64,000 nucleotides of DNA, filler included, from Asterionella formosa (GCA_002256025.1; 13 parts of 13 records of this genome joined end to end with filler, not necessarily neighbours in it), one strand, 5' to 3'; counted from the first letter of the whole stretch, positions 12,600-63,275 are shown. Numbers and translations: made by a program. Notes: generated by a model from the sequence alone, not told the origin.

Positions 12600-13723
12600 G
12601 AGAATAATTGAATTCAAGGTAAAGGAGAGGAAGAACAAGCAAAGAACAAAAAGGAGAAGGAAAGAAGCAATTCATAGTACTACTAGTAAATTTAAAATGC
12701 TAAAGGGGTGACTGATGTTTCATCAGAACCAGCTATTGCTCCATTTTACCAATTACTGAGCAACAATAAAATACTTTGGGATCGTATATTTATTGAAAAA
12801 TTGAGTTTCTGATGGGAAACTCTCTTGATTTTGAGGAAAAAGAGACTTTATTGCAGTCAATGGGAAGAGAAATGAGAGTACTTTGTTGAATGAACACCGA
12901 AATGTCACTGTGAAGTGGTTGCAGGAGAGGGAATCGAGTATTCTTGGGGTCGCGCCAAGTTTTTTTACTGTCAGGTTGCTCTGACAAAGAAAAACTGGAA
13001 AAAGAACTTCAGGTCTGCAGTGCAAGCAAGCAAGCATGTCAACTGACAAAGTGTTAACAACAAATAAGCTAAGACATTTTTCAAGGCGAGCAAGGCAATA
13101 TATATGTGCATGCTTCAAGAATTGGGAAGATCTTGAGAAATCTCAAGATGACAGGATGGATGCTGAAGTTGACACAACAGCAAATGAAGCTGACCAAATT
13201 AGTGTTGAGAAGCTTGTCAAACAGTTCTAAACACACTGGCTGCCATGCCTTCGATTTCGACACAACATTCTGCAAGGCAACCTAAGACTTCAATCTAACA
13301 TAGCAAACAATAGAGCAAGAACGAAGCAAAGAAGAAGCAACCAAGCAGCAAAATCAATATACATGAACGTTGAATGAGCGGAGGGCAATATATATCGAAG
13401 AATATGCATCAATTTTTGTGTTCATCACAATTATTTACTCTGAATTGTTAAATGCAAAAGAAAATCTATACTAACGCCTACATATTCTACAATTTTGATC
13501 TTCAGGTTGCAACCAGCCATTATATACTGACAATATAAAGAGTCCTACTTTGTTCGAAGACAGTGTGTGAACATTTGGAAAAGTGTCTATTGGTGAAAGC
13601 GCCATTGAGCGTTATACATATTTATTTTATATGTGAAAAGTACGTGTTTGATTAGTCTGACTCAATTACAAATTTGAACCCTACCGGTATCTTGATTCAG
13701 GGGTTCAAATGCAGCAACCATAA
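12600..13723 (+). mobile_element. Decayed DDE transposase (IS630/Tc1-mariner-related, TPKCHxELAGEGIEYSWG type), C-terminal part, followed by a terminal inverted repeat
   Basis: TPKCHCE..AGEGIEYSWGRAK and VLTTNKLRHFSRRARQYICA. Ends in CAGGGGTTCAAATGCAGCAACCATAA (13698-13723), matching the right TIR of the MITE at 48622-48647. Confidence 0.7.
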
Positions 13724-15313
13724 TTGACGGATGACTGTTTATCTAGCGTAGGAGAAGGAAGGCTATAGAAGAAGCTTAAGAGAGAATGTACGTAGGAATC
13801 TACGTGAAGGAGCACAAGGCTCGGGAAGCAGTACCAGGATACGAAGAATTTAACATACTGTACATAGGAATTCATAACAGAAATTTAGTATATGGCTTGA
13901 GGGAAAGCACTCGTTCCATTTCATGGATTTCAATATTAGGTCCCTAACATGAATTCGTCCACTTCTTATAATAAATAAATATACTGTTATCATTGACGAA
14001 GCACCATAACAGCTAATCTTGGAAGTGTTTCTATACTGTGAATAACGGTTCATGATTTAAAAAATCATGAAGTACACTACCCATAGGTGTATAAAAGTGT
14101 ATATTATTAGCGCTTGTGTGGTGACGGAGTTCAGCACAGTACCTGGCACCATTAACAGAAAGTGCTCGTTTCAATCGTTGCTTTCTTCTGCCTCGACGTT
14201 GGCCTCATCGTCCTGTTATCTCCTTGACCCCAGTCACAAAGCGATCACAATTTAACTCTTTGATAAAAGGTAAGCAGGATGCTTTATGATGTCGAAGTAT
14301 CGTTTCATGAGGGTTCATACTGTATTTACATATTTAGTATGAAAACGTGTATTCACTCCTGGTTGTTACCTGTGCTTACGCATACTTAGATTGTAAGCGG
14401 GGGTTCTCGATGTCCTCGAGTAACGATTCGATTCTTTTCTCCAAGATGCACGGTCTCTGCGGATTAAAAAAATCTCCATCTACACATCTATAGATGACGA
14501 TTTCTCCATGATGAAATAACATACTAGCGGTAATAACCAGCTGGTCCGCCTTTCGATTCAGACGTGATCGTCATCCATGTTAGTTTTTCATCACTGTTTG
14601 TCTTCTCCTTCTAATCCTTCGCGTTATATTTGTCTTGTGATAACAATACTGCTAGTAAGCTGTTGAGCTGCTAGTTCAGCGCGGAAACAAGCAAAATGGA
14701 ACAGGAGAAGCCAACAGTGGGACCCATTGGTGCCACTCCTCCGGTATCGTCAGTAGTAATGCTAACAAAAATACAAGAATGGTCTCCAATTCAGACCCCC
14801 GCCNNNNNNNNNNNNNNNNNNNNNNNNNNNNNNNNNNNNNNNNNNNNTTAATTAATTAANNNNNNNNNNNNNNNNNNNNNNNNNNNNNNNNNNNNNNNNN
14901 NNNTGAATCCTGCATCGGAGGCTCTTCCTCCAGGACCTTGTTCTGTGGGTCGTTTATCGACTACTCGAGGAATGACGAGATTGGACGCCGCTCGGCGGCC
15001 ATGAGCGACCGAAAGGCGACGAGCACAAGAAATCATCGTTCGTTCTGTTGCACGCCGCGGTGTGCTCAATACATAGAGCTCGAATATGAAAGGGTATTGT
15101 GAACAGTCTCCTCTACCTACAGGGTACCTGGTACTACTGTAGGCTGGGAGACAGTCAAAAAAAAAGTGAAGAATTCCGACTGTATGTTTTTATGTATATA
15201 ATAAAGTGGCATGTACTTGATCGTCCCGATTCAACTACAATACAAGGTACCAGGTAACAGGTAACAGGGTACCTGGTAACAGGTAACAGGGTACCTGGTA
15301 GGAGTAGTGGGTG

Positions 15314-15431
15314 AGCGATCTAGCGCATCAATACAGACGTAAATGGGGTTAGTGTTATATTATATATCAGAACTCAATAATGAGAGAACTCGACTAACCC
15401 TTATTGTATACTTTGGTGTCTACTTAGAGAA
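15314..15431 (+). repeat. Short LTR-like direct repeat (copy of 19036-19157)
   Basis: Near-identical ~120-bp copy including GGGTTAG and the TGTT start; the terminal CA is lost. Confidence 0.75.
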
Positions 15432-17249: not shown

Positions 17250-19157
17250 TTGGTGGCTGCTATGTATATACATGACAGAAGATGAATGTTACTTGATCGT
17301 AGTGGGTCCTGATCTTTAACTTATGAATGAATTGTACTTCAGGACATTTCGTTGCCCATCGAGCATTTATACTTGAATTATACCATGCATAGCAGGTATG
17401 ATGTTTTCTTCCTTTGCCAGTACTCTTTCATAAAACATGATGCTCCCAAAATTTAATCCGTCAGCTTGTATGCTGCAAGAGAAGTACCTGGCCTTAGTAC
17501 ATTCTGTGAGTTTGCTCGCTCATTTGTCAAGCTGGTTAATTTTTTTATGATGGATTTTGTACAAAATACTATGATTCCTATAATGATAAAGAACATTTAC
17601 ATGATGGATTGCTCTATTTTGATACACCTATCAAAGATTATGTTAACTCATGAAACATTAAGACTGCTAACTATACAGATACGGAAAACTGCTGTTATGG
17701 CTGAAATAAATTTATTTAACCACAAATCATCAAGCACAATTCCAAATGAAATGATCTGTTGAAGAAACTGACTCATTGGGATATCAATAAAAATTTGGTC
17801 TTCAAAATTAAAAAGGGATTTAAATGGAACTGGTCCATTTTTCTGGTTACCTATGCATACATCAAGAAGCTTTTGAATCAATGAAAGAATTGTAAGTTGC
17901 AGATACACTCATGCGTTATCCTGATCGTAATTTTCCTTTCCATATTTTTTCTGATGTTTCTGATTGTCAATCAAGAAACTTTCAAAGAATTTCGCTCTAT
18001 GTCATTGAATACGGTTCTATATGTTCACACTGAGCATCGTATTTTTATTTATAATACCCTACACATAAACTCAACGTCTTCTCCAGTGGAGGCTTTATAT
18101 TGAAGAATATCTTCTCCTTAATTTTCAAGATGTGAAGGGTACTGATAATGCTAACTTTTACAGATTCTATCTCTCGCCTCCCGAGGCTTGAGTCTTTGGT
18201 GGGGGATGATATTGGGCCGAAATCTTCAGCATCAGCATCCACTTCTACTTTCTCAATTGAATTAGATGATGAACCTCAGTTCACCCGTTTTCTCAATCAT
18301 CCAATCTTGGAAGCCAATTTTCAATATCCTCTGGATTATAAATCATCAAGACATGAAAATTTCTGGAAAAACAATTGATTCAATACAGTCACCAATTTAC
18401 CAGAAATTTCACGTATCAATAATAAGACATCAGAATATTTTGCGATCAAATTTGAAAATGATTTGTTAGACAGATATCTCCGTCCAGAACGTTGTATACA
18501 TGACAATGGAGGTGAATTTACTGGTATTCCTTTCATACACATGTTAGTGTTGAATGGAATTAAAAATGGGACCATTACAGTCAAGAGTCCACAAACAAAT
18601 GCTATCTGTGAACGTTGACATCAATCTATCAGTAACAGTTCACGAATTATGTAAAAGGATCATCCTCCAATCAAGGAATTTCAAGCTCAAAATATCGTGG
18701 ATACCCTGAGCTGTTTGCTGCATCATATGCAGCTCGAGCTACTATTTCTAGCACATTGCCTATTTCACCACCAAGAATATGGCTGGTTTTTCCAACATGA
18801 TAGGATACTAAATATTCCTTTGATTACAGATATGCAATTGATATTGGGATATCAATGTCGATAAGTGATAATTGACAAATCTCTACATAGCGATAGTTTC
18901 TGTCGTCGTTCTTGTGATAACAAAGTTGGTGATGAGATTTAATCCTATTGAATAATCCTAATACCTTGGATGACCATGGACGAGGTCCTTATTCTATTAT
19001 TCAAGTATATGCCAATGCATGGTACAGTTATTTTTAGCGATCTTGCGCATCAATACAGATGTATATAGGGTTAGTGTTCTATTATATACATCAGAACTCA
19101 ATAATGAGAGAACTCGACTAACCCTTATTGTATACTTTGGTGTCGACTTAGAGAACA
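17250..19157 (+). mobile_element. Ty3/gypsy LTR retrotransposon remnant with an 83-bp 3' LTR
   Basis: Protease-like LLD.SGS; RT-RNaseH linker HQEAFESMKEL..ADTLMRYPD; RNaseH ETFKEFRSM..VHTEH..QRLLQWRLYIEEY..KGTDN..DSISRL; integrase CIHDNGGEFTG...SPQTNAICER; GPYSIIQVYANGTV; then TGTTCT...AGAACA at 19075-19157. Confidence 0.85.
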
Positions 19158-22432: not shown

Positions 22433-24190
22433 AAGATCATTTTGACGGGATCAAGGAAAGTGTGAGAAGTCTTGTTCGGGATTACATGAGGAATCAGGCA
22501 AGAACAAGACTAGATAGACTATTAACAGAAAGCTCACAATATTACAAAGTGTAAAGTGAAAATACGTTTTCAGCTTTAGAGATCTTAAAAGTAAGATCTG
22601 CGATATTTCAACTAGACAATTTAACAATGTGGCACATCGAAATTTTCGGCAACAAAATTGCCGATTTTAGCATGACAACCAGAATAACGGTATTATGCAT
22701 AGAGATGGTACACCAAGCGAAAAACACACGAGAATGATTGTAACAACATGCAACATCAATGAAAATTGAACATGATGTTTGGAGCAACCAAAGTATGAAA
22801 TGCGATGTAATAAGTAGCATCAAATGAGAAATAGAAAAAATTGTTTTGGGTTAGAAATGATGTAAAAAGGAAGAGTTCCAATGGAGACGTATGCATTATG
22901 ACATTGTAGTACTTACACACCAGACAACATTGACTTTCCATCACCACATAATCGAAGACCGAAAGAAGAAGATCAAAAACTGAACCCAATGTAGACCTGC
23001 ATCGTTATATAGCGTAAATGGTCTGGTTTCTGCAACCATGCGCATCGCTGTAGTAGCCTGACACCAGTAGCAGTATTTCCGCCACAGTCATTCCTCTCTG
23101 CCGCCCACCAAACAAGCAACCCTGATCATTCCATTCTGAGCAAGCGTGATCGCCACGCTGCTCCAGCACTATTGACTCTCTCTAGCTGAGTATTCATGTA
23201 GCTTCTGATACGAACTCGTAGTAGAAATGTAGCAAAGCGCGTTAGCAGAAGAAAAGCATTGCTTGGCGGCAATATTGACATCATTGTCAATGATACAAAT
23301 CAACAAATACGATTAACAACGGCACAATACCACATCTTCAATGAGTAGTCATTGATAAATGCATTGGTTCTTATGTAGGTATATACAATCGAAATAAAAC
23401 AACAGTGCGTAATGACAAACAACGATGAAAGTGATCAAAACAAACCACGGAAGCAATCAAATCGGAAAGTCGATAAATACAATCTACAATCCACATTCAG
23501 TATTTCACTGTTGTACTCACCGATCCGCTTCAACTAGCATAACAAGCAGCAGACAATGGGATAAAGGAAAGACGAACGTTGCCTATTGCAAGCCCGAATA
23601 GAGTCAAGGCAGGCAAGATAGAGTGAGAACTATATTTGTGAGGACGAAATCGGGCATTTGGTGCGTAAAATCAATGAATATGTGAACGATATAATTCAAC
23701 ATTTCAGGTCTCGTAAAAATAATACCGAGTCTACAGAGATAATATTATAACGTGTTCAAAGTAAGCGTTAAAGCAAAGCTTAAACCATGCATGGTTGTTT
23801 TTAGTACCACGTACGGCCATAAGTAGACTAGATGACTGCCGGTACCGGTAGAATATCCGTGAATCATCATCACACGCATGACCGGAGCAAAAACTTGCCA
23901 CCAACATCAGATGTATCGATATCATCGTTTGTCCGACGAAATATGGACGATGCGACTCCATGAATGCCTCGAGACGACAAGCAATCCAACTACAATCCGT
24001 ATCCATTAGGCAAAGAATCGCTACTGGCGTCATCGCGGAACTGATTTCACTTCAAACCGGTCATGATGGACGACGATTGGCATGGTGAAAGGTGAATTGC
24101 CGGAGTCCACTTTTCAGGAGACGAACAAAAAACGATGTGAATTATAGATATAAATTAAAAAAAATCTGTAAAGTATATAAAATGGTTTCC

Positions 24191-24545
24191 TTAAGGTTCC
24201 TGCATTTGAACCCCTAGGCAAAAATTAATATATTGCTTAGGGTTGCCGAAACTCCCTGGAACTAAGAACTTTTATGTGCTAATTTGAATATCAATGATTC
24301 CGTTTGAAATATTCAAATGAGTGGAAATTTACGCGTACTTATGTAGATTCCATTTCAAATGCATTAAACATCGATTGATAGATTCTTCATCGCTGAATGT
24401 TTTACATTGCTACTCTACCGATAGTATACCTACTCGTATCAAAAAATATGTATCACATGCACGAGCCGGCGGCTCCGAAAAACATTTGAATGAGCATACT
24501 AACGGAACTATCGTACTGGTAAGCGTGCACTACATCTAAGCCGCG
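24191..24545 (+). mobile_element. Left end of the TIR MITE family (partial copy)
   Basis: TTAAGGTTCCTGCATTTGAACCCCTAGGCAAAAAT..., aligning with 47525-47870 over about 350 bp. Confidence 0.85.
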
Positions 24546-25158
24546 TATTACGTGAAGTGACCATCACATAAATAAGCCTAGTTGATTTTGAATGCATCAC
24601 ATGAATTAGTTGAATACATCAAAATACGTAGTTGAATATATCTATATATTATCTGAATACATCACGTTAAATATTTGATCAAAGTATCATGCATGCATTC
24701 CTGATCATCACTATATTATGTGATCACNNNNNNNNNNNNNNNNNNNNNNNNNNNNNNNNNNNNNNNNNNNNTTAATTAATTAANNNNNNNNNNNNNNNNN
24801 NNNNNNNNNNNNNNNNNNNNNNNNNNNGTAGTCGGAAGACGAGATTACACATGGCTGATATTTACTGGTATGATTCAAACCACGAAGCACTGCCATCGTC
24901 ATCACGCCTTAGCTACAACAGTGATCCACTAATACACAGTATGTACGACACGACCCAACAGCCAAAATTGATGTCTGATGTGGTATAATACCGGTAGCAG
25001 GTACCAGTACATGAAAACGACTTTTTGCTCCGCCCCTTGTCGTCATTTGTTGATCTCAAGCCGTGCTAACCGCCCGTTGGCTTGCCATTTGTTGAGCCTG
25101 CCCAACAATACATTCACTTACTTGCTCCTTCCATCACTGCGCTAAAGTGTCAATCTCA

Positions 25159-36846: not shown

Positions 36847-37075
36847 GACACACAAAAAATTGAAAAAATTCAACAGGTTGTGGAAAACTATGAACTCATC
36901 ATGCATTGTATATATTTGAATTATGCATGATCAAAATTGATATTAGTATACACAGGATGTGCCGTATAATGAGCGTGCTTAAAACTATGCAAATGCTCAA
37001 CTATATATACATTTAAAACTCTTACAAATCTTTATATATATGTATTCATGGCTGAAACATTTGAAATCATGTTTT

Positions 37076-37379: not shown

Positions 37380-37429
37380 CAAGCTGTGCATAGCATCATG
37401 GTTTGTCAAGAGCAAATGTCAGGATGATC

Positions 37430-47220: not shown

Positions 47221-47524
47221 GAGTAAGCCGATCCTTACGTAGAATGATGGTATGTTGGCTACGTAATCCTTCATATGCGAACAGTAACGACACCAGTGGT
47301 GCCGGTAATTCGACGCAATTATTTTCAACCAGAAGGTGTCGTACCATGGTACACCAGGTACCTGGTACTATTTGGTGATGGGGCAGCACAGCTCTACGTA
47401 TGGAAATTTGCGTGTACGAGAATACAGGAGTCGATCCCGCAATCTCATGAGGTGTGCGTGCTAACCCATTAAGTCATTCCCCTGCAATCAGAACTCTAAT
47501 ATAATAACATAACTTTATACCGCC

Positions 47525-48647: not shown

Positions 48648-49734
48648 AAATCGCTCAGTCAAATTCAGAAATGGCAGTGTGTACATTTGGGGGTTCAGGA
48701 AGGTCTGGTTGTGCACGTTTTATGCGCACTTCGTCAGTTTCGACTCACTTCCAATGATTCGTCCCATGCCTCCCAGAAGGGTTAGGCTGACTTTCTGTTC
48801 CAAACTTTCTTAAGTAACTTTCTTCTATGCGGTTAAATTATGATTCATTTAATCCAAGTCGTCTTCTGATCATCGAAATCGTGTTCAACTACTTCTACAT
48901 GTGATGGTATCCAGGAACTGGAAGACGGTTTGGTAATCGAGATATTTAGCTTTATCTTTTCTTAAGTTAAAAACGTGTTTTATTTGACCTTCCAAGACAA
49001 CGAAATTTTTGTATTGAGCCGTAGATTGTAGGTGTCAAAATGGCCCCAGAATTTTGAAAAATCTATGCAAAAGTTTCCAGACAGAAGGAGTACCAATACC
49101 GTAAAACCCTGTGTCTTCTATACCCCCATAGTCCTGTACCCACGATACTGGTATCAATACCGGAAGGCTTGTTTGCTTTCAGGTGGGTGTTGGCAACCAA
49201 GTACAGACCTAGTAATGGAATGTTGAAAAGGTCCGTACTCCTTCCCGCAGGCTGGGTATCTTCACATAGGCTCTTAAGTGCTACTAGTGGTACTACCTAG
49301 TACCTCTTAATTTCTCTCTGCTTTGCTTCAACTAGCCTTCCTGATAGATAAACTAATTGACCTTCCTGTCAAATTAACACACTTTTTCCTCAATTGATAA
49401 TCTAAACTTAAATTAAATTATCAGCCAAACTAAATGTTTCCTTTCCATGCATCTTTGCTTCCAACATATTCGTTTTCAGACTCTCATCGAATTTCCACTT
49501 NNNNNNNNNNNNNNNNNNNNNNNNNNNNNNNNNNNNNNNNNNNNTTAATTAATTAANNNNNNNNNNNNNNNNNNNNNNNNNNNNNNNNNNNNNNNNNNNN
49601 ATTGAGATTCAGCATAGAAGGAGATACGAAAATGTGCGTAACAGACTACTGTCCACATAGCTATAGTTATAGAATGATTCTGATTAGAACGCATTTCATT
49701 TTCATATCGCTCGCTCGTTTCTGCATTCAGCATA

Positions 49735-50195: not shown

Positions 50196-53100
50196 TTGAC
50201 TTGTGTACATTACAGGAGTGACTTAGCTACTAAAGTGCGTATTATAATATCATACTCCGTAGTACAATGCAGAATACAGTTCCCAATCATCTCATCATGA
50301 TTGATGAGATGATAAAGTGATATCACGATAGGGTTACATCGATGCATACATCACCAAAGTATGAAACTTAAGAAAAATAAAGTATATCACATAGCTATGA
50401 TACATTGTTTATAGAACTGTGATGATTTCTTAAAATGTTTATGATACAATTTTGATCAAAATATGATCATGTTAAAATAATGCAATGATAATAAAATACG
50501 ATAAAATATGTACGCAAATTTTATCAATACAAAATAGAAAATAAATCAATCAATCATAAAGTATGCTACTTAATATATAAATTCGACTTAAAATGTATAC
50601 AGTAAAAGCCAACAGTTAATATAAGAGTATTATATGGTGGATAGGATCTAAGTATACGGATGCATTGATATGTACATCACTATAATATGATTTGTGATAT
50701 CACATACCGGTATCCTCAACAACCAGCCAGCACGTTCATTGTCGTGTCGTTTTTCTTTGTTATAGCTATATATACGTGCATATGTATTGTGGAAACACTA
50801 TGCTGGCGGAACATGCATATTAAACTGTGCTATGTTCAAGAATTACTACACTCGGTTACCATCACACCAGCTGCACCTCCACAAGCGCCGCAAAAAGCTC
50901 CGCGTTTCATTTCCACTGTTTTACATCATAGTCTTCTGGCCCTTTGACAACTTGCTTTCCAAATGGCATTTCAAGGATTTCATGCAAAGGATCAGTCAAA
51001 CAAGAAAAGTGACTTACTTCCATTGTTTACACAACTCGACTTCATGTTTTCGGAAAAGAAGATGAAGAAACTTATGAAATCAATCGAAGATTCCTTTGAA
51101 TACACTCAAATAACAGATGAATTTGAGCAGATTCATAATACTCCAGAAAGAATAATGAAGTATGCCGATACAATAGTGGCAGAGATTGAAAAGAAGGAAA
51201 GATTGCTTTCGAAGAGCCAAGGAAACCCAAACAGTTGTTCTTTGCGGATGAAGACTGTATTCCTACAGAGTCACGACAGTTCCATCCAGTGTCATATTTG
51301 CTCCTCATTCTCCTGAAATCGCTGATAATGAAGAAGAACTCAGTGATTCTCATTCATTTGATGAACAAATTCATGCGATGAATGAACATACCGGCGGAAA
51401 TGTGGGAGACATCCATCACTTCTGAAGTAGAAATGGTTGAAAAGTTGCAAAGCCAAGAAATATGCTCTCACTATTCGTCCAGAACATCAAGATGAACATC
51501 ATGAAAGCAGAGAAACTATTGCATTTCTAAAAGAAAAGCAATAAATTCAAGAAAAAGTACGAGCTAGATCAAGACCTCGAATTCAAGAAGATCAATGCAG
51601 ACAGAGATGTGATGTTGGCTAAGGCAGTCCAACGGACGTAGAAAATATTGATGCAAACAAATTTAAAAAAAAACAGAACCGGTACACTAAGTTGTGGAAA
51701 ACAATGAACATATAGTGCATTGAATATTTTCGAATTATCTAAATGCAAATATGATCATCTCAACAATACCAGACGTTCCATATTGAGAGTGCCTTTGATT
51801 TTTATATATGTACGACACTTGACATATTTATGTATTTACGAATTTTATAACTATATACATGGCATAAATATATATATTTGAAATCGTTCTGTCATGTTAA
51901 CAAATAATGCCTGCTTCATCAAAAGAAATATCGGAGTAAAGCACATGACGAGAAAGGAAAAGTTTACGCAATAACGAAAAATATTGTGGCTTCGACACAT
52001 TGCGCCTTCGAAAGATTGAGTATGTTTAAGGTAATGAAGCCATCAATGTGGGACTTGGATGACAATTGTTGGGAGGCAGGACAACAGCAAATTGTAAACT
52101 AAACGCACATTTCCATTTTTCTCAGTTGATTCAACAGCTCGTTTCGCTTGTTGGGGAGCACCAATGTAAAACAAAACAAAATTGTTGAGTGCTCTTGTCG
52201 TTGGACCTATTCACTTCTGATGGAACATAACTGACGGACACGCCATATTTACCTTCTCTCAAAGTTCAAAGTTAAGCTAACGAAAATGAATCGGTGAGTT
52301 TTATTCGACAACATTGGAAACCTGAAACTTACTTATTCAAGAATTTACTGACAATTTACTATTACAGACTTATGCATCACTTGCTTTGATTTGGCTGTGG
52401 CAAGTGAAGGAAGCAAGAGGATACGATGGAATGGCGTGATGTTGTTTCAGTGTAACATGTCTACCTAACAAGTCATTCATTCTCATGATTGCTTGTTACT
52501 GTAACTGCATAGGACAATAAAACCGATTGATCAACGGAATAGTCGGCGAGTTCAGAATGACACTAACATCAGGGAGAGAGACACAACATTAGTAAGGCAT
52601 TGCTTGGCACAAGATTCAGAAAAGAGGAAGAAAAGGGCGATACAGGAACAATATACATTGAGACGAGTGGAGAGGAGAGAAACTTTCCTTGGGTAGCTGT
52701 CGAAACAGAAATATCATTGTTAAATTTGTTAATTAAATTACGATCCATTCCAATCCTTTTCGAACAATACTTGTGATTAGAATTATGATCATGTTTAAGA
52801 TAGATTTACGATGAAACAATTCACATGATAGCATAGAGTTGAGCTTATTTTAGGATGCGTTGAAGTAATAATTTACATCCGGCGATCACGAGAATTGAAA
52901 ATAATATGAGAAGGTTTATGATATTGATGAGAAATGTTGTTGATCAGCTGATATACATTGTGTGATGATAATGTTCTTATTATCATTATACTTCAAGGTC
53001 GGTAAAATATTAATAAATCATCATAGTGATAGGATACCTTGATCATAGTTTTGATCCAAAAATTATCATGTATTCGAAAATCCTGTGCCACTTAGCGTAT

Positions 53101-53772
53101 GATACCCTTGATCCTATATGCATGATACTTTTAATTTGCAGACGATGTGTTTTGCTTCTTTCAGGATAATGGTAGACAAAAAGTTTTTGTAAGTTACAAA
53201 CAACAGCAGCATTGGAGCCCATTTATTGATCGATACTTTCTTATTCAATCTTCAACTGACACATTATTCTTTTACACAAATATGCATCAGTTACTTCCTC
53301 AATTTGTGTTAAGTGAAGATAGAAGCGAAATGCATGCTGTTGTGTAAGCAAAACATGAACAGCTAACAATGAATTGCTTCTTTTTGTTGCTTCTCATAGT
53401 TAGTATGGCTGATTGGAACAACGAAACGGATTAAATAGTAATGGGAAAATGCGTGAATGTAAACTCAGATCCGTCAGGAGAAAATGAAACCAAGCAGGGG
53501 AACAACAGCAAGGCAACCAGTACTACTACAACAACCTTCAGAATTGGATTGGGGGGAAGGTGGAATTGAAAGCAGCTGAAGCACCAATCATTGCGATGAG
53601 AGCATTGTAGAACATTCTGTAGCCACTCAAGCTATAGAAACATAGAACCATTCTTAAATATAGTTGCAAATTTCGAACCATTTCATCCTATTTTAGACAG
53701 TGAAATCGATGAGAATTACGATCATGCTAATATAGATGCATGACAAAAGAATACACATCCGATGTGTATTCT

Positions 53773-54446
53773 TTTATTGTCTATACCAGTTTCGAATGCG
53801 TTCAGCTATGATATCTTTTGCTCCCCCCTCCTAAACACTATCTCACTGCCCTTGTAATAGATTTTTCTTTATCCTTGCTTTGGCTTCACAGGCCCAGGTT
53901 ACTCAATGCCTTCATCTGCAAGGAGTTCAGCCAAGCAGGTCCACGTTGGCGTCAAGAAAACCTCAACCCCGATTTTCCTCCCATGCTCCACCCATTGACT
54001 TCTTCATTGATGAAGTCGAGGTAGCTATACTGACGACATCAGGTGGCGCAGGCTTGTGTATAGATTGATGATGCTGAATGCATTGCTTCCTTTTCCCGTA
54101 GGTACCTATTTGTCAACATTGTTTGGGTCGATCTATTCTTGTTCCCTCAAGACCAGCAGAAGCAATTATCCCTTTACTTCTCCTCCCAAGAACCTTCATT
54201 TCTCTTTCACAATTGTCCTGATGATGTTTGTAGAGCATTTTTAGTTCCCTTGTTTTGATTTTTCCACTGGTTTCGATCCCTTTTGCATTCAAGTCAAGAA
54301 ACAAGCAACTCATTGAGATTTCTGGAGGTCTCGGTCAGTGGCACCATAAAGCAACAATCAACAGATCATGGCGGCTGTTCTACATTTTCTGTAGCAAGTA
54401 ACATTCAAAAAGGGTCTGGAATCATTGGGGAGAAAAATTAGTAGGA
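53773..54446 (-). mobile_element. Repeat family A, copy 4, runs off contig
   Basis: Same orientation as, and highly similar to, 45658-46317. Confidence 0.85.
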
Positions 54447-55061: not shown

Positions 55062-56681
55062 CTATTCAAGATAAACTGCCAAAGACAAGGACACGGCTGA
55101 TGTTGCCGCACAAGCTGTCAAGATACAAAAGGTCGGAATCCACGCCTTTGGCGAAGAATGTGCAATACCGGCCGCATATCCGTTAAAAAATGCCAAGAGA
55201 GCAAAGCCCCCAATATCAAAAACGTCGGCAATTGTTGCCGATGAATCCGTCCCTCCTCGATTCAACGAGTACATGGACGGTGGAATGTAAAATGGAATTG
55301 CAAAACAAAATCCCCAAAGGAACAACGAACAGGTCGATATCAATGTTGTCATGGTGTGAATCCCCGTCATGTGGGCCAACTGCGCCAGCGCACAAATAGT
55401 TGCTGTTCCCATTAAGGATGCAATTGCAACAACCTTCCTTCGTCGTGACAAGTTCGAATAAATTTGTGATCCCGTGGTGACGGAAAGTAAACATCCCAGT
55501 GCAAAGAGTGACCCGACCTTGGCAGCTTGGGAACTGGTGGCACCGTACGCCTGCGTCATTAACGTTGGAATAAATAATAGAAACGACCCAAATACCATGA
55601 GAGCCGATCGTGACAGTAAATGTAACCAAAAGGCTGGAATCTGTGTTTCTCGTCTAAGGGTGGCAAGGGATTTAGCAATGGATGGCTTCGTTTTCTTTTC
55701 ATTGATAACTCCCAAATTAGGCTGCATGGTACCGAAGTACGACAATAGCGCAATGGGGACTAACTGCAAGGCAGCACTGCATCCGAATACAATTCGCCAG
55801 GAACGTTCATACCGTCCAAGGCAAAAGTCTAGGATGGCACTAAAGAAGAAAAATGCGCATGCGTTTCCCATCCGCGCAGCAGCTGCCAGCATGGCAATTC
55901 GTTTCGCCCATTCGTCCGACGGAAATGATTGGTGGACTGCGTGAATGCAAGCAGCCCAACACGAAGAAAACATAAAATCAATAAGTATCCAACAAAATGC
56001 AAAGCTTGTGAAGGAAGAGGCAACTGATATTCTGCTTAGACACAGCAAAAGGCCACATAGACATGTTATCAAGGATGCGACACCCCCATATCGATCAATA
56101 ACTGGTCCTAACAGCAACTTGCCCGAGGCGATGGCAACCGTGGCCAAGGTCAATTGCCTGGCCATGAGCGACTGAGGCGTAGCCGCCCAACCGCTAAAAT
56201 CCAACCCCAGCTCGGATGTTAGCTGCGCCAATACACTAGGCAGAGCACATTTGGCACCCATGACGGCGAAGTAAGTCATAAACAAAGCAGCTGTCATCCC
56301 TCGACGTCGAAAGATTTCATTCTTGGAGGGTGTGTACTTCTCCATAGAAGTGCAATTGCTGTTATCGTCGTCATTGGAGTTAGTTGCCGTCACTGCGACA
56401 TTGTCAGCGCCGCTTCGAAGGAGCATCGCTTTTCGTGTGTGACCCCCGAAGTTTGAAGAGCGTGGTTGTCGTTTTCCATAAGTCGCTGTGTCGTTTTCAG
56501 GAGTCGTTCTTCCATGACACTGGCCGTGATGGGAAAGATGGAGCACGCCATTGGGTGCAAAGGCAATAGCGGCGTTGACCAAAGCACATGCAGTAACTAG
56601 CGCAATCAAGAGATTGACATGTGGACGCGATGCCGATGCGATTCGTCGTGGTTGATGACTCCGCAACATGCGTTCCGGCAT
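55062..56681 (-). CDS. MFS transporter with bipartite plastid-targeting presequence
   Basis: About 12 TM helices, MFS motif A-like GPVIDRYGG. N-terminal LLIALVTACALVNAAIA/FAP is an ASAFAP-type cleavage motif. Start at ATG 56681 or 56669. Confidence 0.85.
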   Translation of the reverse strand: MPERMLRSHQPRRIASASRPHVNLLIALVTACALVNAAIAFAPNGVLHLSHHGQCHGRTTPENDTATYGKRQPRSSNFGGHTRKAMLLRSGADNVAVTATNSNDDDNSNCTSMEKYTPSKNEIFRRRGMTAALFMTYFAVMGAKCALPSVLAQLTSELGLDFSGWAATPQSLMARQLTLATVAIASGKLLLGPVIDRYGGVASLITCLCGLLLCLSRISVASSFTSFAFCWILIDFMFSSCWAACIHAVHQSFPSDEWAKRIAMLAAAARMGNACAFFFFSAILDFCLGRYERSWRIVFGCSAALQLVPIALLSYFGTMQPNLGVINEKKTKPSIAKSLATLRRETQIPAFWLHLLSRSALMVFGSFLLFIPTLMTQAYGATSSQAAKVGSLFALGCLLSVTTGSQIYSNLSRRRKVVAIASLMGTATICALAQLAHMTGIHTMTTLISTCSLFLWGFCFAIPFYIPPSMYSLNRGGTDSSATIADVFDIGGFALLAFFNGYAAGIAHSSPKAWIPTFCILTACAATSAVSLSLAVYLE

Positions 56682-57736
56682 TTCTCTGCTTTTATTCACA
56701 AGGACAAGTGTGATCTGGAGACGACGAAAGGTTTCATCGACACATTAATCTCAAATGTTGGAAGCTGTCGTCAATAGCGTTGAACCAGGTACCCATCAAT
56801 TCTAAATGATGCTTATTGAGGAGTGATGAGCGTCGAATCGATCACCGATGACATAAATAGTCGATTGGGAGGCGATATCACACGACAGGCTAACATAAAA
56901 AGAGGATCATCACAGTCGAGAAGGATTTTGAAAAGTCAGGATGGCTGATGGATGATGTTACGGTAGATGATTGTGGCTACCGGTACCAGGTACCCTGGTA
57001 CTAGCTACGTGGTACCGGTACCAGGCAATAACAAGCAGGCAATCGAGCAATTGAATAGTATGGGTTTTATGTACCCTGGGACAATACCTTAAGTACTGCC
57101 AGTTATGTGGCTTGATAGCTACGGTATTCTACTCGCATTCGCGCTCACGTGTCAGCATCATTTTTAATATATCAATCACACGACAAGAAGAGCACGAGGA
57201 GACCAAAAAAAAAGAAAAATTGGCTACTAAAACAAGACCAAAGTAGTACTGCCTCATATGATATACCAGTAGTTTATTTTTAGTTACAACAAAAGTTCAT
57301 GGGCAAGCAACAAGGCAGATGCCAAATTTTTATGGATCTCCGATTGCCAACAAGTCGTAGAGTTAATCTTAATACAGCACCGAAGCAGATGGATATTGAT
57401 TGCTCACCATGGTACCAGGTATCTAACTTTGCATGTCACAAAACTTGGCGGATAGATAGCACTGTTGAACTCTATCGTTTGGCTGACAAGTGCTTTTAAA
57501 ATCATCTATTTAACATTGCCAATCGTGTATTAGGGGACAAAAATTTCCCCCCATTAACAATAGCCCCATTTTATAAGGTGGGAAACGTGCCGGCATTTCG
57601 CTTGTTTCCCATTAATACATACCTGTATGAAGCAGGAGATCACCGGTTATTTCACTGCCATCTATACATATTTATGGCAACCAGTTCTGGAGTTGTTCCA
57701 GTGACACTTGAACGTCATCACCAAATGTTTGCGTAG

Positions 57737-59176
57737 CTATTCAAAATAAACCGCCAATGATAAAGTCACGGCTGATGTTGCTGCACAAGCTGTCAAGATA
57801 CAAAAGGTAGGAATCCATGCCTCACGAGAACCATGGGCAATGCCGGCCACATATCCGTTAAAAAATGCCAAGAGGGCAAAGCCTCCAATATCAAAAACGT
57901 CGGCAATCGTTGCTGATGAATCTGTCCCACCTCGATTCAAAGAGTACATGGACGGTGGAATGTAAAACGGAATAGTATAGCAAAATCCCCAGATGAAAAA
58001 GGAACATGATGATATCCAAGCTGTCATGGCGTGTATCCTCATCATATGTGCCAGCTGAGCCAGAGCACAAATGGTTGCTGTCCCCATTAAGGATGCTACG
58101 GTAACAATCTTGCTTCGTCGTGACAATTTCGAATAGATACGTGAGCCCATGGTGACGGAGAGTAGACACCCGAGAGCGAAGAATGACCCAACGTTGGCAG
58201 CTTGTGAAGGAGTGGTTTCATAAGCATGAATCATCAGCGTTGGAATAAATAACAAAAACGAACCAAAGACCATAAGAGCCGACCGTGATAGTAAATGCAA
58301 CCAAAATTCAGGAGTTCTAGCTTCCCTTCGTAAGGTTGAAAGGGACTTTGAAATAGATGGCCTTCTTTTCATATGATGTGATACATCTAGATCTGGTAGC
58401 ATATTCCCGAAATACCACAAGAGAGCAATAGGAATTAACTGTAATGCCGCACTGCATCCAAAGACAACTTGCCAAGGGCGTTCGTAACGCCCCTGACAGT
58501 AGTTCAAGACAGCGCTGTAAACGACAAACGCCATTGCATTTCCTGCTCGTGTAGCAGCAGCCAAAATGGCGATGAGATCGGCCCATTCGTCTGGTGGAAA
58601 CGACTGATGGACGGCATGAAGACAGGCAGCCCAACAAGAAGAAAACATGAAATCAATAAATATCCAGCAGATAGCAAAGTTGGTGAAGGACGTAGTTGAA
58701 GATAGTCTGCTTGTGCATAGTAGAAGACCACATAAACAGAATCTCAAGGACATTACTCCTCCATATCGATCGATAACTGGTCCTAGTAGCAATTTTCCCA
58801 GCGCAACGGCAAATGCCGCCATGATCAATTGCCTAGCTAACAGCGTCTGCGGGGTAGCTGTCCAACCTCCAAAATCCAGTCCCTGTGCGGAGGTCAACTG
58901 AGAAAATACACTCGGGAGAGCACTCTTGATACCCATAACTGAAAAGTACGTCATAAACAAAGCTGCTGTCATTCCCCGACGTCGAAAAATTTCGTTCCTG
59001 GATGGTTTGTGTTTCCCACTAAACGTGCCATTCCTGCTGATGCCATCGACAGAATCAGTCATTACCAAAGCTTCGTTCGTTCTATTACCAAGCAGCATGA
59101 TTTTCTCCGAGAACTTCTCGGCAGTCATAGCAGAGGATTTCCTCCTCCATTGCCACTCTTGGTCAATCTCTGTCAT
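57737..59176 (-). CDS. MFS transporter, tandem paralogue of 55062-56681; probably has an upstream exon
   Basis: Highly similar core from PSRNEIFRRRGMTAALFMTYF to LSLAVYFE. Candidate 86-nt intron at 59180-59265 just upstream of the ATG. Confidence 0.85.
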   Translation of the reverse strand: MTEIDQEWQWRRKSSAMTAEKFSEKIMLLGNRTNEALVMTDSVDGISRNGTFSGKHKPSRNEIFRRRGMTAALFMTYFSVMGIKSALPSVFSQLTSAQGLDFGGWTATPQTLLARQLIMAAFAVALGKLLLGPVIDRYGGVMSLRFCLCGLLLCTSRLSSTTSFTNFAICWIFIDFMFSSCWAACLHAVHQSFPPDEWADLIAILAAATRAGNAMAFVVYSAVLNYCQGRYERPWQVVFGCSAALQLIPIALLWYFGNMLPDLDVSHHMKRRPSISKSLSTLRREARTPEFWLHLLSRSALMVFGSFLLFIPTLMIHAYETTPSQAANVGSFFALGCLLSVTMGSRIYSKLSRRSKIVTVASLMGTATICALAQLAHMMRIHAMTAWISSCSFFIWGFCYTIPFYIPPSMYSLNRGGTDSSATIADVFDIGGFALLAFFNGYVAGIAHGSREAWIPTFCILTACAATSAVTLSLAVYFE

Positions 59177-59502
59177 TTTCTGTATTGAGTAGAGTGAGCA
59201 GATTTTGACTCCTTCACTTCAATCGAAGGCAGAAATTATGGACAAGGGCTCTCAGTGGATATTACGCTTGAGAACCAATATTCGCTGCAGTAAGTGCTGA
59301 TGAAGGATCGAGGAAGGAAAGCAATGCATGCGAGCCATGTTACTCAACATCATCGAAATTTACTAGTAACGAGAAATTTTGCTNNNNNNNNNNNNNNNNN
59401 NNNNNNNNNNNNNNNNNNNNNNNNNNNTTAATTAATTAANNNNNNNNNNNNNNNNNNNNNNNNNNNNNNNNNNNNNNNNNNNNAATCCTACCATTCTAAA
59501 TT

Positions 59503-59577: not shown

Positions 59578-60608
59578 AATGAGAATAGATCTTCTTCTGA
59601 ATGACCCTTATGCCTACATGAAAGTGTTGATAGACGTTTTTGGACACATTAGCGGTTTACCACGACCTCAAAGTATACAGGCATATGTACACATACATGA
59701 AATAGATAAACCTTAATATCACATATTTATTTAGATCGCAAATAGATTTGTTTAGCAGCACAGTAGAAATCATACCAAGTGTATATAGTGCCGAAAATTG
59801 ATGGCAAATATGCATTTTGAAAAATTGTAATCCTTCTTCACTGTAGAACATAAATTAATTCTACAGTATGCAGATATTTTTATTTACCGATTTGAACCTC
59901 TATAATGGATAAATGCATCATTATAAACAATCATATCTTCCGTTGTTGAAGGAATCTGGTTGAGTCGTTTGTTCAATCATAATCCCCCACCTCTCATGAA
60001 CATCTGCAAGTTGCGGTAATTTTTCTGAACTAAGGATATAGCTGTCTTTATCCAATATTAAATTGTTTATTTAAGCAAAATGACCGCATCTGGTTGTTGT
60101 ACCTGCAAGTTGCGGTCATTTTCCTGAAACGGTCAAGGTGTTACCGGACAGCGACATATTTTATCATTTATAAAGATTATCTTCTATTCATAGCACGATT
60201 CAGCGAGAAATTCCTATGAATTTCAGGAAATGACTATGACTTTCAGGAAACTTAAGGAAATTTCAGGAAACTTCAAGAAACATACCGGTAGTAAGGAAAT
60301 GCATGGAATTTCCTTGAGGCTCCAAAATTATTATTTTTCTGGCCAAAGTGAAAAACGGGACATCCTTTGTTCTGGATTTAAAGTATCGTACAAGTTTCCC
60401 TATTGGTAAAAGTTAGGAATATTTGAAATACTAAAGGGTGGTGTTATTAACTATTACATATAAATACCGGTATACCCATATGTAGTCACAAGACTTTTTC
60501 CAGCAATAAGAAGAAAATCAAAAGGATTATAGTAAATCGCTGTACAGCAAATCAAGCAGAAAACCAAAAATAACAAACCTTACCATCCGCATTTTAGTTT
60601 TGCGTGAT

Positions 60609-62801
60609 CTAGCTCATGCGGGATCGTTGACTCTTTGGTTTGAAATAGCCTTTAATCTTTCCAGAACGATCACCAATCTCAGAGAAAAGGGCATCAGCCT
60701 TTCTCTGCTCCTCCTGTAAAACGCGATCTTCGTCTTCCATCCTGCGCTGCAATTCAGTCTCTTTTGGGAGCACGGAACGAAGCTGAATTCGAGTCAAGTG
60801 TTTCCCCCGAATCACAGAGTTCTTTTGGAATCTTGAAAAATTCTTCCCATTTTCCTTGAATTTTGTGTTATATGCTGGAATGATGCACTTGTCAACAATC
60901 AAACCCTTGACAGGGCATGTGGGAGCACATGTAACAATTTTCTGGCCTTCTCCCAAGGTAGCCTCCAAATCCTCGTTGGAATTCTTATAGGCTTTGCGTT
61001 CATTGCCCTGAGGAGCGGCAGTGAACCAGCCTTGCTCGTCCTTGCCCTTGAGCCTCTTGCGACCTGATTCGGCAATTTCTTCGTTGTGAATTTCTAGCCA
61101 GCGTAACCGCTGCATTCGTCTCAAAGCCGCATCACCTTCGATGGGTTCCTCATCTGTTTCTGGGTGACTACGCTTCTTGCTGCGCTGCGAAGATGATACG
61201 CCTTTCTGTACCAAAAATCCTTCATCCGGTTTTTGGTGTCCAAGCTGCCTGATTTGAGAACTATGCAGGGGAGCAATGATAGGCTCGTCCTCACGATATG
61301 ACATATCTCGCTTGCTCCCAATTTTCTTCTCTTGGTCAACTCTAATTCGCTTTGATGTCGTATGAGCTGAATACTGCTGAGGAGAAGGAGCGTGCGTCAC
61401 CTCGTGCGTTTCACTGGTAACTGAATGCTGTTTGGTTTGCGGATAGTTTGGAATTTCTTGGGTTGTTACCGTTTCATGGCGACGTTTCTGTGAGCGACTT
61501 TCTGGTGCGGTTTCTTCCATTAGCTCAACTGATTGATCCCGCTGGTCAACTCTATTCTTGGGGAACGCGTTTCTCTGCTTGGGTTGACCTGGTTCGATAG
61601 TTATCATACGATGATCGTCACCATTCATATCCTGAGACTTGTTGAACATTGTTGGAGTGACTTCCTTATCTATTGGAACCCCAATGACATTGCCTTCCGT
61701 ATCTGACAAGGGAAGTTGTTCCGAGGCGCAGCTTGCAATACATTTTTGAATCACATATGGAACTGTCATCTTCTTCAACTCTGCGATTAGCTTCCCATAT
61801 TTGGAGGCGGATGAGTTGACAAAGAAAGCTCCTTCACAGGTCGAGTCTCTAATGAGCTGGATAGCCGCTTTACCAGTAACCTTGTAAAGAGGAATAATAT
61901 TGGCCCCAGCAGCACGAACGAGAGATTCCATATCGTCATCAACCAAACTTAGCAGAGTTAGGTGAGACCATAGTCTGGGGTTGGGCTTAATGTTCCAGAA
62001 TTCAAACTTGTCCCCTGACGGGATATAATCAGACTCATTTGGCATAGGATCTGATGGATGTTTCCGAGAAAGCATAGCTTGGACAAATTCACTCGTCACC
62101 ATGGGAGTTTCCGTCAACCATGCAACAAGGTTCTTGGCGTTTGAGATCCGATCCTTGGCAACAAGATGGGTAGTTAATTTATCGAAGACTTCCGCAGACT
62201 TGGCGCCAATTTCATGTATTCGATTGGCGAGATCATCCTTTGTCGCTTTGTCGAGACGCGAAAAGATGAATTTAAGTGGTACTCGAGTAATCACCATTGT
62301 CGAGCCATTTTGACCGCACTGAACAATCACTCGTCCATTATTTTCGTGCAACAATGGATTAAGCAGCACAGGTGCATCAGGTTCAACCTTTTTCAGAGTT
62401 GCTTTGCTGCAATCCGTCACAATCCTTTTCGTGATTTCTGACAAGGTTTTGAAGACCGTTTGGGAGGGTTCACCTTCATTGTCAGTTTCGTCGTTTCCGG
62501 TTTCGGAATCGTCGCCAGTCTTGGCTGCATTCTGCTGACTCTCTTCGATCACAATAAAATTACCAAACTTGCTTTGATCCTTGAGCATAATATTCCCCGC
62601 AGCATCGAGGGTCAACTCCAAGTGCTCACGAGAAACAGACTTGTCAGAGAAAACGACATCGCCATCCTTACGGCCAACTTTGATTAGAACGCCATCCTTG
62701 GTAGTATTAGGTGCCGCAAAAAGCGGCGCTATCGGTGATTTCAGCTTGTTCCCAGGGAGAGGTACATAGTCATGAGGGTATGCGTCAACTTTAAGGAGCA
62801 T
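60609..62801 (-). CDS. NBS1: Nibrin / NBS1 homologue (FHA-BRCT-BRCT...Mre11-binding motif)
   Basis: FHA: VGRKDGDVVFSDKSVSREH...LKDQSKFG. BRCT: TTHLV...AKNLVAWLTETPMVTSEFV...PNESDYIP. Long disordered region, then KNFSRFQK (NFKxFxK-like) and a terminal ADALF motif. Likely ATG at 62801. Confidence 0.8.
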   Translation of the reverse strand: MLLKVDAYPHDYVPLPGNKLKSPIAPLFAAPNTTKDGVLIKVGRKDGDVVFSDKSVSREHLELTLDAAGNIMLKDQSKFGNFIVIEESQQNAAKTGDDSETGNDETDNEGEPSQTVFKTLSEITKRIVTDCSKATLKKVEPDAPVLLNPLLHENNGRVIVQCGQNGSTMVITRVPLKFIFSRLDKATKDDLANRIHEIGAKSAEVFDKLTTHLVAKDRISNAKNLVAWLTETPMVTSEFVQAMLSRKHPSDPMPNESDYIPSGDKFEFWNIKPNPRLWSHLTLLSLVDDDMESLVRAAGANIIPLYKVTGKAAIQLIRDSTCEGAFFVNSSASKYGKLIAELKKMTVPYVIQKCIASCASEQLPLSDTEGNVIGVPIDKEVTPTMFNKSQDMNGDDHRMITIEPGQPKQRNAFPKNRVDQRDQSVELMEETAPESRSQKRRHETVTTQEIPNYPQTKQHSVTSETHEVTHAPSPQQYSAHTTSKRIRVDQEKKIGSKRDMSYREDEPIIAPLHSSQIRQLGHQKPDEGFLVQKGVSSSQRSKKRSHPETDEEPIEGDAALRRMQRLRWLEIHNEEIAESGRKRLKGKDEQGWFTAAPQGNERKAYKNSNEDLEATLGEGQKIVTCAPTCPVKGLIVDKCIIPAYNTKFKENGKNFSRFQKNSVIRGKHLTRIQLRSVLPKETELQRRMEDEDRVLQEEQRKADALFSEIGDRSGKIKGYFKPKSQRSRMS

Positions 62802-63208
62802 CGCAAGTAGAGACGCATTGAGTATGGCGTCATGTAGTATGGATGAAAGTCTAATTCTACCACATAAAGGCAGACTGTTGGAAGCAGAATCTTGGATATA
62901 CAGTATGTAGCTATCCAAGAGGAAGAGTAACGATTGAAGACTTTAGGGTAATCTCCCTCGTAGTTCAAACCGTCCTCTGTACTGGATCTTCGAGATGCCG
63001 ACACCCTGTTAGGGTCCGTCCCGATCAATCATACCTGCAAGGTCACCAGGTAATCGACATATTTGCTTACCGTTCATCAGCGTTTCCGATAGTTCCAACC
63101 GTCTTTTCCGGAGATTTAGCTAGGTTTCCTTCAAAGTACCAACTGCCCTTACTACTATGTACGGCTTGCTACATATGATTATTTGGGAATACCAACGAAG
63201 GCCGAATC

Positions 63209-63275
63209 TTCAGGTTCCTGCATTTCAACCCTAAATTAGAGGTAGGGTTTTAAAAACAATACCGGTATTGAGTCT
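63209..63275 (-). mobile_element. Isolated right end of the TIR MITE family
   Basis: TTCAGGTTCCTGCATTTCAACCCT...GAGGTAGGGTT is the reverse complement of about 48590-48647. Confidence 0.7.

Follow-up and report, generated by a model that had tools for sequence, protein, structure and literature searches.

The non-coding DNA of the diatom Asterionella formosa carries many short, symmetric insertions at TA dinucleotides, by which a bare TA has been turned into two copies of TA bracketing CCGG or a close variant of it (TA-CCGG-TA and relatives, hereafter called units). We analysed these units in a stretch of 64,000 nucleotides (nt) of the assembly GCA_002256025.1, hereafter the window, and can confirm that the TA-site insertions are real, strong and recent: the insert is fixed and symmetric, it is specific to TA, the differences polarise as insertions, and polymorphism between strains and alleles is observed. 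The strings are probably excision scars of a Tc1/mariner-type cut-and-paste transposon, which is the best available explanation even though it comes without a donor element; in falling order of probability, it is followed by a donor-free insertion process, replication slippage, a motif kept by selection and a technical artefact.

Rather than a single locus, the window represents a sample scattered over the genome. It consists of 13 unrelated draft-assembly contigs of falling length (4871, 4867, 4865 ... 4837 nt), the last of which is cut by the window end. Its 24 runs of N form 12 pairs, each of which encloses the 12-mer TTAATTAATTAA, a six-frame stop linker:

4872-4971, then 9839, 14804, 19766, 24728, 29690, 34650, 39602, 44552, 49501, 54447 and 59384: linkers, N44 + TTAATTAATTAA + N44

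Since the pieces are glued contigs, distances and neighbourhoods across them are meaningless. Ten of the 13 contigs contain TACCGGTA and 12 contain at least one core unit, and the TA-site insertions therefore look genome-wide in this diatom. The excess of TAATTAATTA (12 vs 0.23 expected) and part of the excess of TAATTA are linker artefacts; TAATTAATTA was considered as a further scar type and rejected, as all 12 copies belong to linkers.

All strings quoted in a previous reading of this DNA, made from the sequence alone (the sequence-only reading), were found where it had placed them, and the count of TA-x-TA words against a Markov background that it had recommended, run on the window, shows enrichment. 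The top over-represented 8-mer of the window is TACCGGTA, which occurs 24 times, compared to a mean of 0.20 and a maximum of 1 in 100 dinucleotide-preserving shuffles and to Markov expectations of 0.26, 0.45 and 0.97 (orders 1, 2 and 3). TACCWGGTA is found 11 times (0.23 expected) and, against second-order Markov expectations, TACTGGTA 12 times (1.0), TACCAGTA eight times (1.0) and TAGCTA, the fifth most enriched 6-mer in non-coding DNA, 39 times (11); TAGTA (88 vs 52) and TACTA (78 vs 57) reach a mere 1.4- to 1.7-fold enrichment by the same measure. CCGG cores have TA on both sides in 24 of 96 cases, compared to 0 to 3 for each of 11 other repeated-dinucleotide frames, and both these frame counts and the pairs of filled and empty sites described below reveal the bracketing expected of a TA target, with two TA in the scar and one in the empty site. 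The flanks of the units are unique, except for two pairs of sites in repeat copies (36708/44783 and 36319/45174), each of which represents one ancestral site, and a tandem duplication (15270/15292); around 40 units are dispersed single units with unique flanks. Long open reading frames (ORFs), which served as a proxy for coding sequence, contain none of the 47 sites of TACCGGTA, TACCWGGTA and TACTGGTA, while they hold 812 of the 4027 TA dinucleotides (20%); for TACCAGTA, two of eight sites lie in long ORFs. This absence of scars from coding sequence, which is ascribed to selection, is counted in support of the excision-footprint explanation. In agreement with the sequence-only reading, the inserted string is fixed, independent of its flanks, TA-specific and symmetric, consisting of a left part and its reverse complement, and such independence of the flanks requires a fixed template. 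The units and arrays are as follows:

6563-6578: array TA-CCAGGG-TA-CTGG-TA
7573-7580: TA-CCAG-TA, within the stop-to-stop ORF 7527-8825
13682-13689: TA-CCGG-TA; bare TA in the repeat copy at 48460
15125-15136: array TA-CCTGG-TA-C-TA
15248-15300: cluster TA-CCAGG-TA ... TA-CCTGG-TA ... TA-CCTGG-TA, in part a 22-nt tandem duplication
18519-18526: TA-CTGG-TA
23843-23850: TA-CCGG-TA, with a CCGG lacking the left TA just before it
24514-24521: TA-CTGG-TA
24863-24870: TA-CTGG-TA
24989-25009: TA-CCGG-TA gcagg TA-CCAG-TA, variable in run X1
29442-29464: array TA-CTGG-TA-CCGG-TA-CCGG-TA-G-TA; 18 bases missing in runs X2, X6 and X8
29586-29607: array TA-C-TA-CCTGG-TA-CCGG-TA-GC-TA, identical in X2 and X8; X6 lacks 5 + 4 bases
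29612-29619: TA-CCGG-TA, present in all strains compared
30291-30301: array TA-G-TA-CCGG-TA
34061-34068: TA-CTGG-TA
36319-36326: TA-CCAG-TA, repeat copy A; same ancestral site as 45174
36705-36715: array TA-C-TA-CCGG-TA, repeat copy A; same ancestral site as 44783
39806-39813: TA-CCGG-TA
41567-41574: TA-CCGG-TA
41688-41695: TA-CTGG-TA
42298-42305: TA-CCGG-TA
42705-42753: TA-CTGG-TA (42705) and TA-CCAG-TA (42746)
43793-43814: TA-CCAG-TA (43793) and TA-CTGG-TA (43807)
44054-44068: array TA-CTGG-TA-CCTGG-TA
44783-44793: array TA-CCGG-TA-G-TA, repeat copy B; duplicate of 36705-36715
45174-45181: TA-CTGG-TA, repeat copy B; duplicate of 36319
45212-45222: array TA-CCGG-TA-G-TA, a 9-base insertion; bare TA in copy A at 36287
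47342-47370: TA-CCATGG-TA, the sole 3+3 unit, then TA-CCTGG-TA-C-TA
47745-47753: TA-CCAGG-TA; bare TA in the repeat copy at 24411
47840-47856: array TA-CCGG-TA-C-TA-CCGG-TA
47900-47914: array TA-CCTGG-TA-CCGG-TA
47945-47952: TA-CCAG-TA
49146-49153: TA-CTGG-TA
50705-50712: TA-CCGG-TA
56978-57020: longest array, at least seven units, TA-CCGG-TA-CCAGG-TA-CCCTGG-TA-C-TA-GC-TA-CGTGG-TA-CCGG-TA
57264-57271: TA-CCAG-TA
57413-57421: TA-CCAGG-TA
60283-60293: array TA-CCGG-TA-G-TA
60465-60472: TA-CCGG-TA
61871-61878: TA-CCAG-TA, within ORF 60609-62942; may be a chance match
63260-63267: TA-CCGG-TA; weak filled/empty comparison
63819-63826: TA-CCGG-TA
3441-3445, plus strand: TA-G-TA, in-frame TAG in a retroelement ORF; extra codon compared to homologues
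4463-4468: TA-GC-TA, repeat copy C; bare TA in copies A and B

Comparisons of filled and empty sites in repeat copies, strains and homologues polarise the differences as insertions. Three of the four pairs of repeat copies put forward by the sequence-only reading are clean: bare TA at 24411 corresponds to TACCAGGTA at 47745, bare TA at 36287 to TA-C-TA-CCGG-TA at 45212 (read on the strand opposite to that listed) and bare TA at 48460 to TACCGGTA at 13682; the homology of the fourth pair, at 63260, is weak. At 4463, a comparison of three copies shows GCTA in copy C alone and bare TA in copies A and B, and thus an insertion. The TAG at 3441 interrupts an otherwise open retroelement frame of 114 codons, and the proposal that it is an extra codon holds: all 14 aligned homologues, which were taken from a search of 1.84 billion proteins, are one residue shorter exactly there, so that the change from TA to TAGTA was an insertion. 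The corresponding proposal that removal of a TAG at 34976 restores a transposase has to be dropped, as the frame is full of stops and matches no Pfam family; furthermore, this TAGTA is common to all three copies, which precludes polarisation.

The decayed retroelement around 3441 spans 2739-3560; its segment 2739-3062 matches RVT_1 weakly (E 0.0015), and further downstream (3219-3560) lies a conserved domain with 79 protein relatives, the best of which is 87% identical. The repeat used for the copy comparisons is at least 2.6 kb long, has no Pfam match and is present in four copies that are 84-95% alike (3845-4871, 34750-36900, 44652-47224 and 53700-54446); three of these lie against contig ends, which is expected because short-read assemblies break in repeats. 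The idea that the inverted repeat formed by copies A and B represents the long terminal inverted repeats (TIRs) of one big element was rejected, as the copies lie on different contigs. Two insertions converting AT to ATGCAT were also seen between repeat copies (36260 vs 45253 and 4629 vs 35180), and ATGCAT occurs 61 times in non-coding DNA (29 expected), i.e. a palindromic GC insertion is found at AT as well, beyond TA.

Near-identical DNA is present in runs from 15 studies labelled as algae, freshwater or lake-water metagenomes. Contigs of four of these runs (X1, X2, X6 and X8) were compared with one whole window contig (24828-29689, 4.86 kb), which was chosen as unit-rich, so that its share of scar-type indels is biased upward. 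The polymorphism at unit sites that the sequence-only reading had suggested looking for was found between strains and alleles in these assembled contigs. The 18 bases after 29441, which comprise the three units CTGGTA, CCGGTA and CCGGTA, are missing in X2, X6 and X8, all of which have bare TA; as this includes X6, the most distant run, both of whose compared contigs fall into the 90-95% class, the array at 29442 is derived in the lineage of the window. In X1, one contig carries an additional GGTACC behind 24999 and reads TA-CCGG-TA-CCAG-TA, which is found in X1 only, and two short contigs read CGGTACAT after 25010 (TA-CCAG-TA-CCGG-TA), where X2 and X8 are the same as the window. The units at 29589-29603 are common to X2 and X8, and the unit at 29612 is common to all runs and hence an older event. 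Four of the ten indel rows of this contig, in three places, lie within unit arrays, and the other six are homopolymer, tandem-repeat or unclassified indels. Since units differ between strains, the process is recent. As a side observation, X1 seems to carry two different two-unit alleles at 24989-25010, where the window and X2/X8 have one unit; either the sample contains more than two haplotypes, or the window allele comes from another strain.

The same comparison bears on two alternative explanations. The first is an artefact of sequencing, assembly or concatenation, a suspicion that arises from the concatenated window and from the false excess of TAATTAATTA and TAATTA that the linkers do yield. 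The units, however, lie inside contigs, away from the linkers, and independent runs of other studies share the older units (X2, X8 and X6 at 29612; X2 and X8 at 29589-29603), their differences being confined to the young units; this rules out an artefact for practical purposes. The second is replication slippage of a 6-nt (TACCGG)n unit, by which the arrays and part of the strain polymorphism would arise from a few founder motifs. It would account for identical neighbours such as TACCGGTACCGGTA at 29448-29461 and for a strain difference of 18 bases, a multiple of 6; indels of the ordinary slippage kind are frequent in these data, and a TACGAC array is found in another diatom (see below). It is nevertheless a distinctly unlikely explanation, because it accounts neither for the roughly 40 dispersed single units with unique flanks, nor for the change from TA to TACCGGTA at single-copy TA sites, nor for mixed arrays (CCGG, CCAGG, CCCTGG, C and GC), and because three strains have bare TA instead of a shorter array. 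Mostly single units, mixed arrays and bare TA in other strains are not the picture of a 6-nt microsatellite.

The composition of the insert was analysed with a grid of left parts (none, C, CC or CCA) and right parts (none, G, GG or TGG). Only CCGG, CTGG, CCAG, CCAGG, CCTGG and a single CCATGG are enriched in it; no enrichment was detected for TACGTA (8 vs 9 expected), TACCGTA, TACGGTA, TACCTA, TAGGTA, TACCATA and TATGGTA, or for the 0, 1+1, 1+2 and 2+0 classes. The sequence-only reading had proposed that 0-3 bases are retained from each end of an element; the grid narrows this to 2-3 nt per end, given that CTGG and CCAG are taken as decayed CCGG. The CpG dinucleotide is indeed hypermutable in this genome, in which it has an observed/expected ratio of 0.75: in a comparison of repeat copies A and B, a CG to TG/CA difference in either direction is seen in 19 CpG columns, 27 are conserved and five differ otherwise, compared to ten changed and 79 conserved columns for the GC control. 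CTGG and CCAG are therefore most simply regarded as CpG-decayed CCGG; alternatively, they may be primary products of a mismatched overlap of CCA overhangs. If CTGG and CCAG are pooled with CCGG as decayed forms, the size classes 2+2, 2+3/3+2 and 3+3 contain 44, 11 and 1 units, and independent 3-nt retention at 11.6% of the ends predicts 43.8, 11.5 and 0.75 (hand calculation). Without three non-independent sites (44783, 45174 and 15292), the classes contain 42, 10 and 1 units, compared to 41.7, 10.6 and 0.7 predicted. The split thus fits termini of the type CCA...TGG, of which each end keeps 2 nt (around 88%) or 3 nt (around 12%), and the inserts are symmetric (CC+GG, CCA+GG, CC+TGG and CCA+TGG), the donor termini being deduced from them. 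An orientation rule for single C or G units beside CCGG units (nested palindrome) was discarded, since around five cases fit and four do not.

From these scars we infer a transposon, its termini, its cut positions and the route of repair. The element would insert at TA, thereby duplicating it. Upon excision, transposase cleavage of the 3' ends would coincide with the junction, and the 5' cuts would fall 2 or 3 nt within the element, so that each flank would be left with TA and a 3' overhang of CC or CCA. Lossless end-joining by the host would then produce TA-CC+GG-TA as the major product, TA-CCA+GG-TA or TA-CC+TGG-TA as minor products and, rarely, TA-CCA+TGG-TA, and the central CpG of CCGG would later decay to CTGG or CCAG. 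Like mariner Mos1, the predicted donor would have termini of the form 5'-CCA...TGG-3', and it need not be abundant or persist. Minimal scars, left by this element or by others with C...G ends, may account for TA-G-TA and TA-C-TA. TA-GC-TA needs another source, because TAGCTA has G before C and cannot derive from C...G termini.

That Tc1/mariner elements duplicate TA and leave a few terminal bases upon excision, as the sequence-only reading had stated, is textbook knowledge and agrees with the accessible parts of PMC3878927 and PMC2642840. According to these, excision leaves 3' overhangs of 2-3 nt, the footprint is made up of the overhang bases, enclosed by the two target copies, and reads C(A/T)GTA for Sleeping Beauty and Frog Prince (PMC3878927), and the 5' break of Mos1 lies 2-3 nt inside the element (PMC2642840). 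The scars of A. formosa resemble those of Sleeping Beauty and Frog Prince, as portrayed in these excerpts, in that two copies of TA enclose a small number of terminal bases that stem from 3' overhangs of 2-3 nt and in that the odd-sized form is symmetric with an A/T-ambiguous centre, which is CC(A/T)GG here and C(A/T)G there. In contrast, the insert is CCGG or CCWGG in the diatom, adding 6-7 bp instead of 5, and here the donor is a deduced one, the scar is the top 8-mer and arrays share TAs. With Mos1 of Drosophila, whose 5' inverted terminal repeat (ITR) begins CCAGGTGTACAAGT (PMC3419177, Table 1, the portion consulted), the proposed donor would share CCA...TGG termini and the retention of 2 or 3 nt per end (PMC3419177 and PMC2642840, as far as accessible); however, neither a mariner ITR nor a transposase was detected in the window, and the donor would be a putative member of the mariner group. 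In rice and other grasses, repair after excision of TA-targeting Mariner/Stowaway elements has been established as a source of variation, and the small insertions left by it are described as making up a sizeable share of natural variation (PMC4423477, PMC5023962 and PMC4561436, in part), which makes them a parallel to the diatom scars, although tens of thousands of element copies are described in rice and none is seen here.

Several observations weigh against excision footprints. Strict and relaxed inverted-repeat scans of the window detected no TA-flanked element with CC... ends, as the footprint mechanism would call for; the relaxed TIR scan yielded 34 candidates, compared to 30 in a reversed-sequence control, all of which are repeat copies or scar pairs. 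No Pfam match to an IS630/Tc1/mariner DDE transposase was obtained in 12 long ORFs, 118 further ORFs of at least 70 aa and the six frames of 34000-39600, and no occupied site with the element in place, and no joints or large insertions, were seen in the contigs of the four runs over 4.86 kb. The absence of donor and transposase is weak evidence, as the window comprises 64 kb in 13 short contigs and short-read assemblies break at repeats. Rice mariner footprints are messy and complex and perfect ones rare, according to the available text of PMC4423477, whereas the scars described here are highly stereotyped. Among the 41 non-tandem indels of at least 3 nt in old repeat copies, seven are TA-flanked (six distinct events, as one was counted twice), compared to up to five for other dinucleotides, so that the proposal of a major mutagenic force gains moderate support only. 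The young strain-specific array at 29442 already holds CTGG, which strains the decay explanation. Finally, neither the clustering of units into arrays, including three units in one strain-specific event, nor the excess of TAGCTA (39 vs 11) is explained by footprints of an element with C...G termini. Six adjacent pairs of units share a TA, compared to 0.94 expected (P = 0.00025, 20,000 simulations of uniform insertion into non-coding TAs), and the explanation therefore has to be supplemented by repeated visits or local re-insertion, by preferential targeting of old scars or by slippage.

The supposed miniature-element ends in the window, CAACCC words, were rejected, as they are coding repeats of a PT-repeat protein. 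The long ORF 2-1931 contains degenerate 12-nt repeats (CAACCCACC...) with a Pfam PT repeat match and is the source of CAACCCAC-type words in the k-mer lists.

The same negative results and the clustering are what a donor-free process would produce. Here, a nuclease, for instance a domesticated transposase, would make a 2-nt staggered cut at TA, the ends would be filled, and a fixed CC or CCA would be added to each 3' end; the string would be supplied by a polymerase or a small fixed template before joining, and stuttering would give rise to arrays. A host-encoded TA cutter or a tiny template-driven system of this kind, which would write CC(A)/(T)GG between duplicated TAs and fire repeatedly at a site, matches the lack of a donor element and transposase in the window, the multi-unit events at one TA in a single lineage, the excess of TA-sharing units and the very stereotyped products. 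We still consider it unlikely. To our knowledge, there is no repair pathway by which a fixed CC(A) is attached at each of the two ends; moreover, the 2-or-3-nt pattern and the CCA termini agree with mariner chemistry, so that nothing further need be assumed, the lack of a donor is judged from 64 kb of a fragmented assembly, and the different strings of other diatoms fit differing element termini better than a shared repair enzyme. If true, a host-encoded writer would be a previously unknown, lineage-specific mutational process of diatoms, with counterparts in the diatoms rich in TAGCTA and perhaps in oomycetes (TACATGTA and TACCGGTA).

The strings of other diatoms were assessed in 80 kb of DNA from distant species (37-58% aa identity), comprising 14 loci that surround PSMD5 genes, a set suited to k-mer counts rather than to the polarisation of sites. 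TACCGGTA occurs once in these loci (0.34 expected, first-order) and is thus not enriched, while TAGCTA (27 vs 7.3), TAGTA (62 vs 27) and TACTA (76 vs 30) are over-represented by the same expectation. In one microbial-mat metagenome contig (L009), TAGCTA is the top 6-mer (17 vs 1.1 expected in 20 kb), and arrays like TAGCTACTAGCTAGTAGCTAGCTA (7720-7770, 8126-8135 and 18314-18323) follow the same array grammar with another core. A further locus, from a third diatom (L005:4290-4400), has, just upstream of its PSMD5 gene, a TA-x array composed mostly of TACGAC (8 vs 0.09) with one TACCAGGTA inside; since CGAC is not palindromic, it may be a plain microsatellite. The CCGG type is therefore specific to the lineage of A. 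formosa, and the G, C and GC types are widespread. Strings that differ between lineages would follow from differing element termini, which argues against one repair quirk shared by all.

A further explanation is that TACCGGTA is a palindromic transcription-factor site kept by selection in intergenic DNA. Promoter motifs of the oomycete Phytophthora infestans include M93 (TACATGTA) and M94 (TACCGGTA), both over-represented palindromes that were read as transcription-factor sites; TACATGTA is found in 4150 copies in promoters and is enriched at RXLR and Crinkler genes (PMC3597505, accessible part). In addition, many units of the window lie 50-600 nt from ORF ends. However, selection creates no TA-duplicating insertions, the filled/empty polymorphism and the insertions within repeat copies show a mutational origin, and around half of the units are found in contigs rich in repeats and poor in genes, with units both 5' and 3' of genes; a selected site is therefore very unlikely as the source of the units. 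M94 and the unit of A. formosa are the identical palindromic 8-mer, over-represented in intergenic DNA of another stramenopile, where, in the text of PMC3597505 at hand, it was viewed as a transcription-factor site and not analysed for insertion polarity or TA duplication. As TACATGTA can be written as TA-CA+TG-TA, which is what CA...TG termini with 2-nt overhangs would give, both oomycete motifs may themselves be Tc1/mariner-type scars. A word search of the literature found TACCGGTA in one paper only, PMC3597505 in its accessible part, and a search outside most subscription journals retrieved no account of such scars in diatoms.

The very high rates of excision assumed by the sequence-only reading are not required. 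As a rough estimate, the non-coding DNA (44 kb) holds around 54 independent units, i.e. around 1.2 units per kb, and these need an insertion rate of about 1% of the per-base substitution rate, which could be reached by modest excision rates and for which a few active copies could suffice. If the units are mariner-type scars, one small cut-and-paste family wrote around one recognisable mutation per kb into the non-coding DNA of a diatom, its scar became the most over-represented word of the sampled genome, and differences between strains and alleles are still being generated. Even with the element itself rare or lost, such scars would leave a countable trace of its activity, and they could be used as a strain-typing marker in freshwater diatom populations. 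They would also supply new palindromic sites in the vicinity of genes, which could be co-opted for regulation; in an oomycete, this 8-mer has been described as a promoter motif. If no donor exists, an insertion mechanism unknown so far is indicated.

Some features of the window concern its genes. For a 945-aa protein, a search of the JGI metagenomes yielded no relative. The best named relatives of a PSMD5-like protein are from pennate diatoms, namely Asterionellopsis (56%), Seminavis (50%) and Amphora and Fragilaria (45%), which, together with the near-identical DNA in algal, freshwater and lake-water runs, bears out the diatom origin assumed by the sequence-only reading. The longest array (56978-57020) is located between two tandem paralogues of major facilitator superfamily transporters, which are encoded on the minus strand at 55062-56744 and 57737-59218 and share 77% DNA identity.

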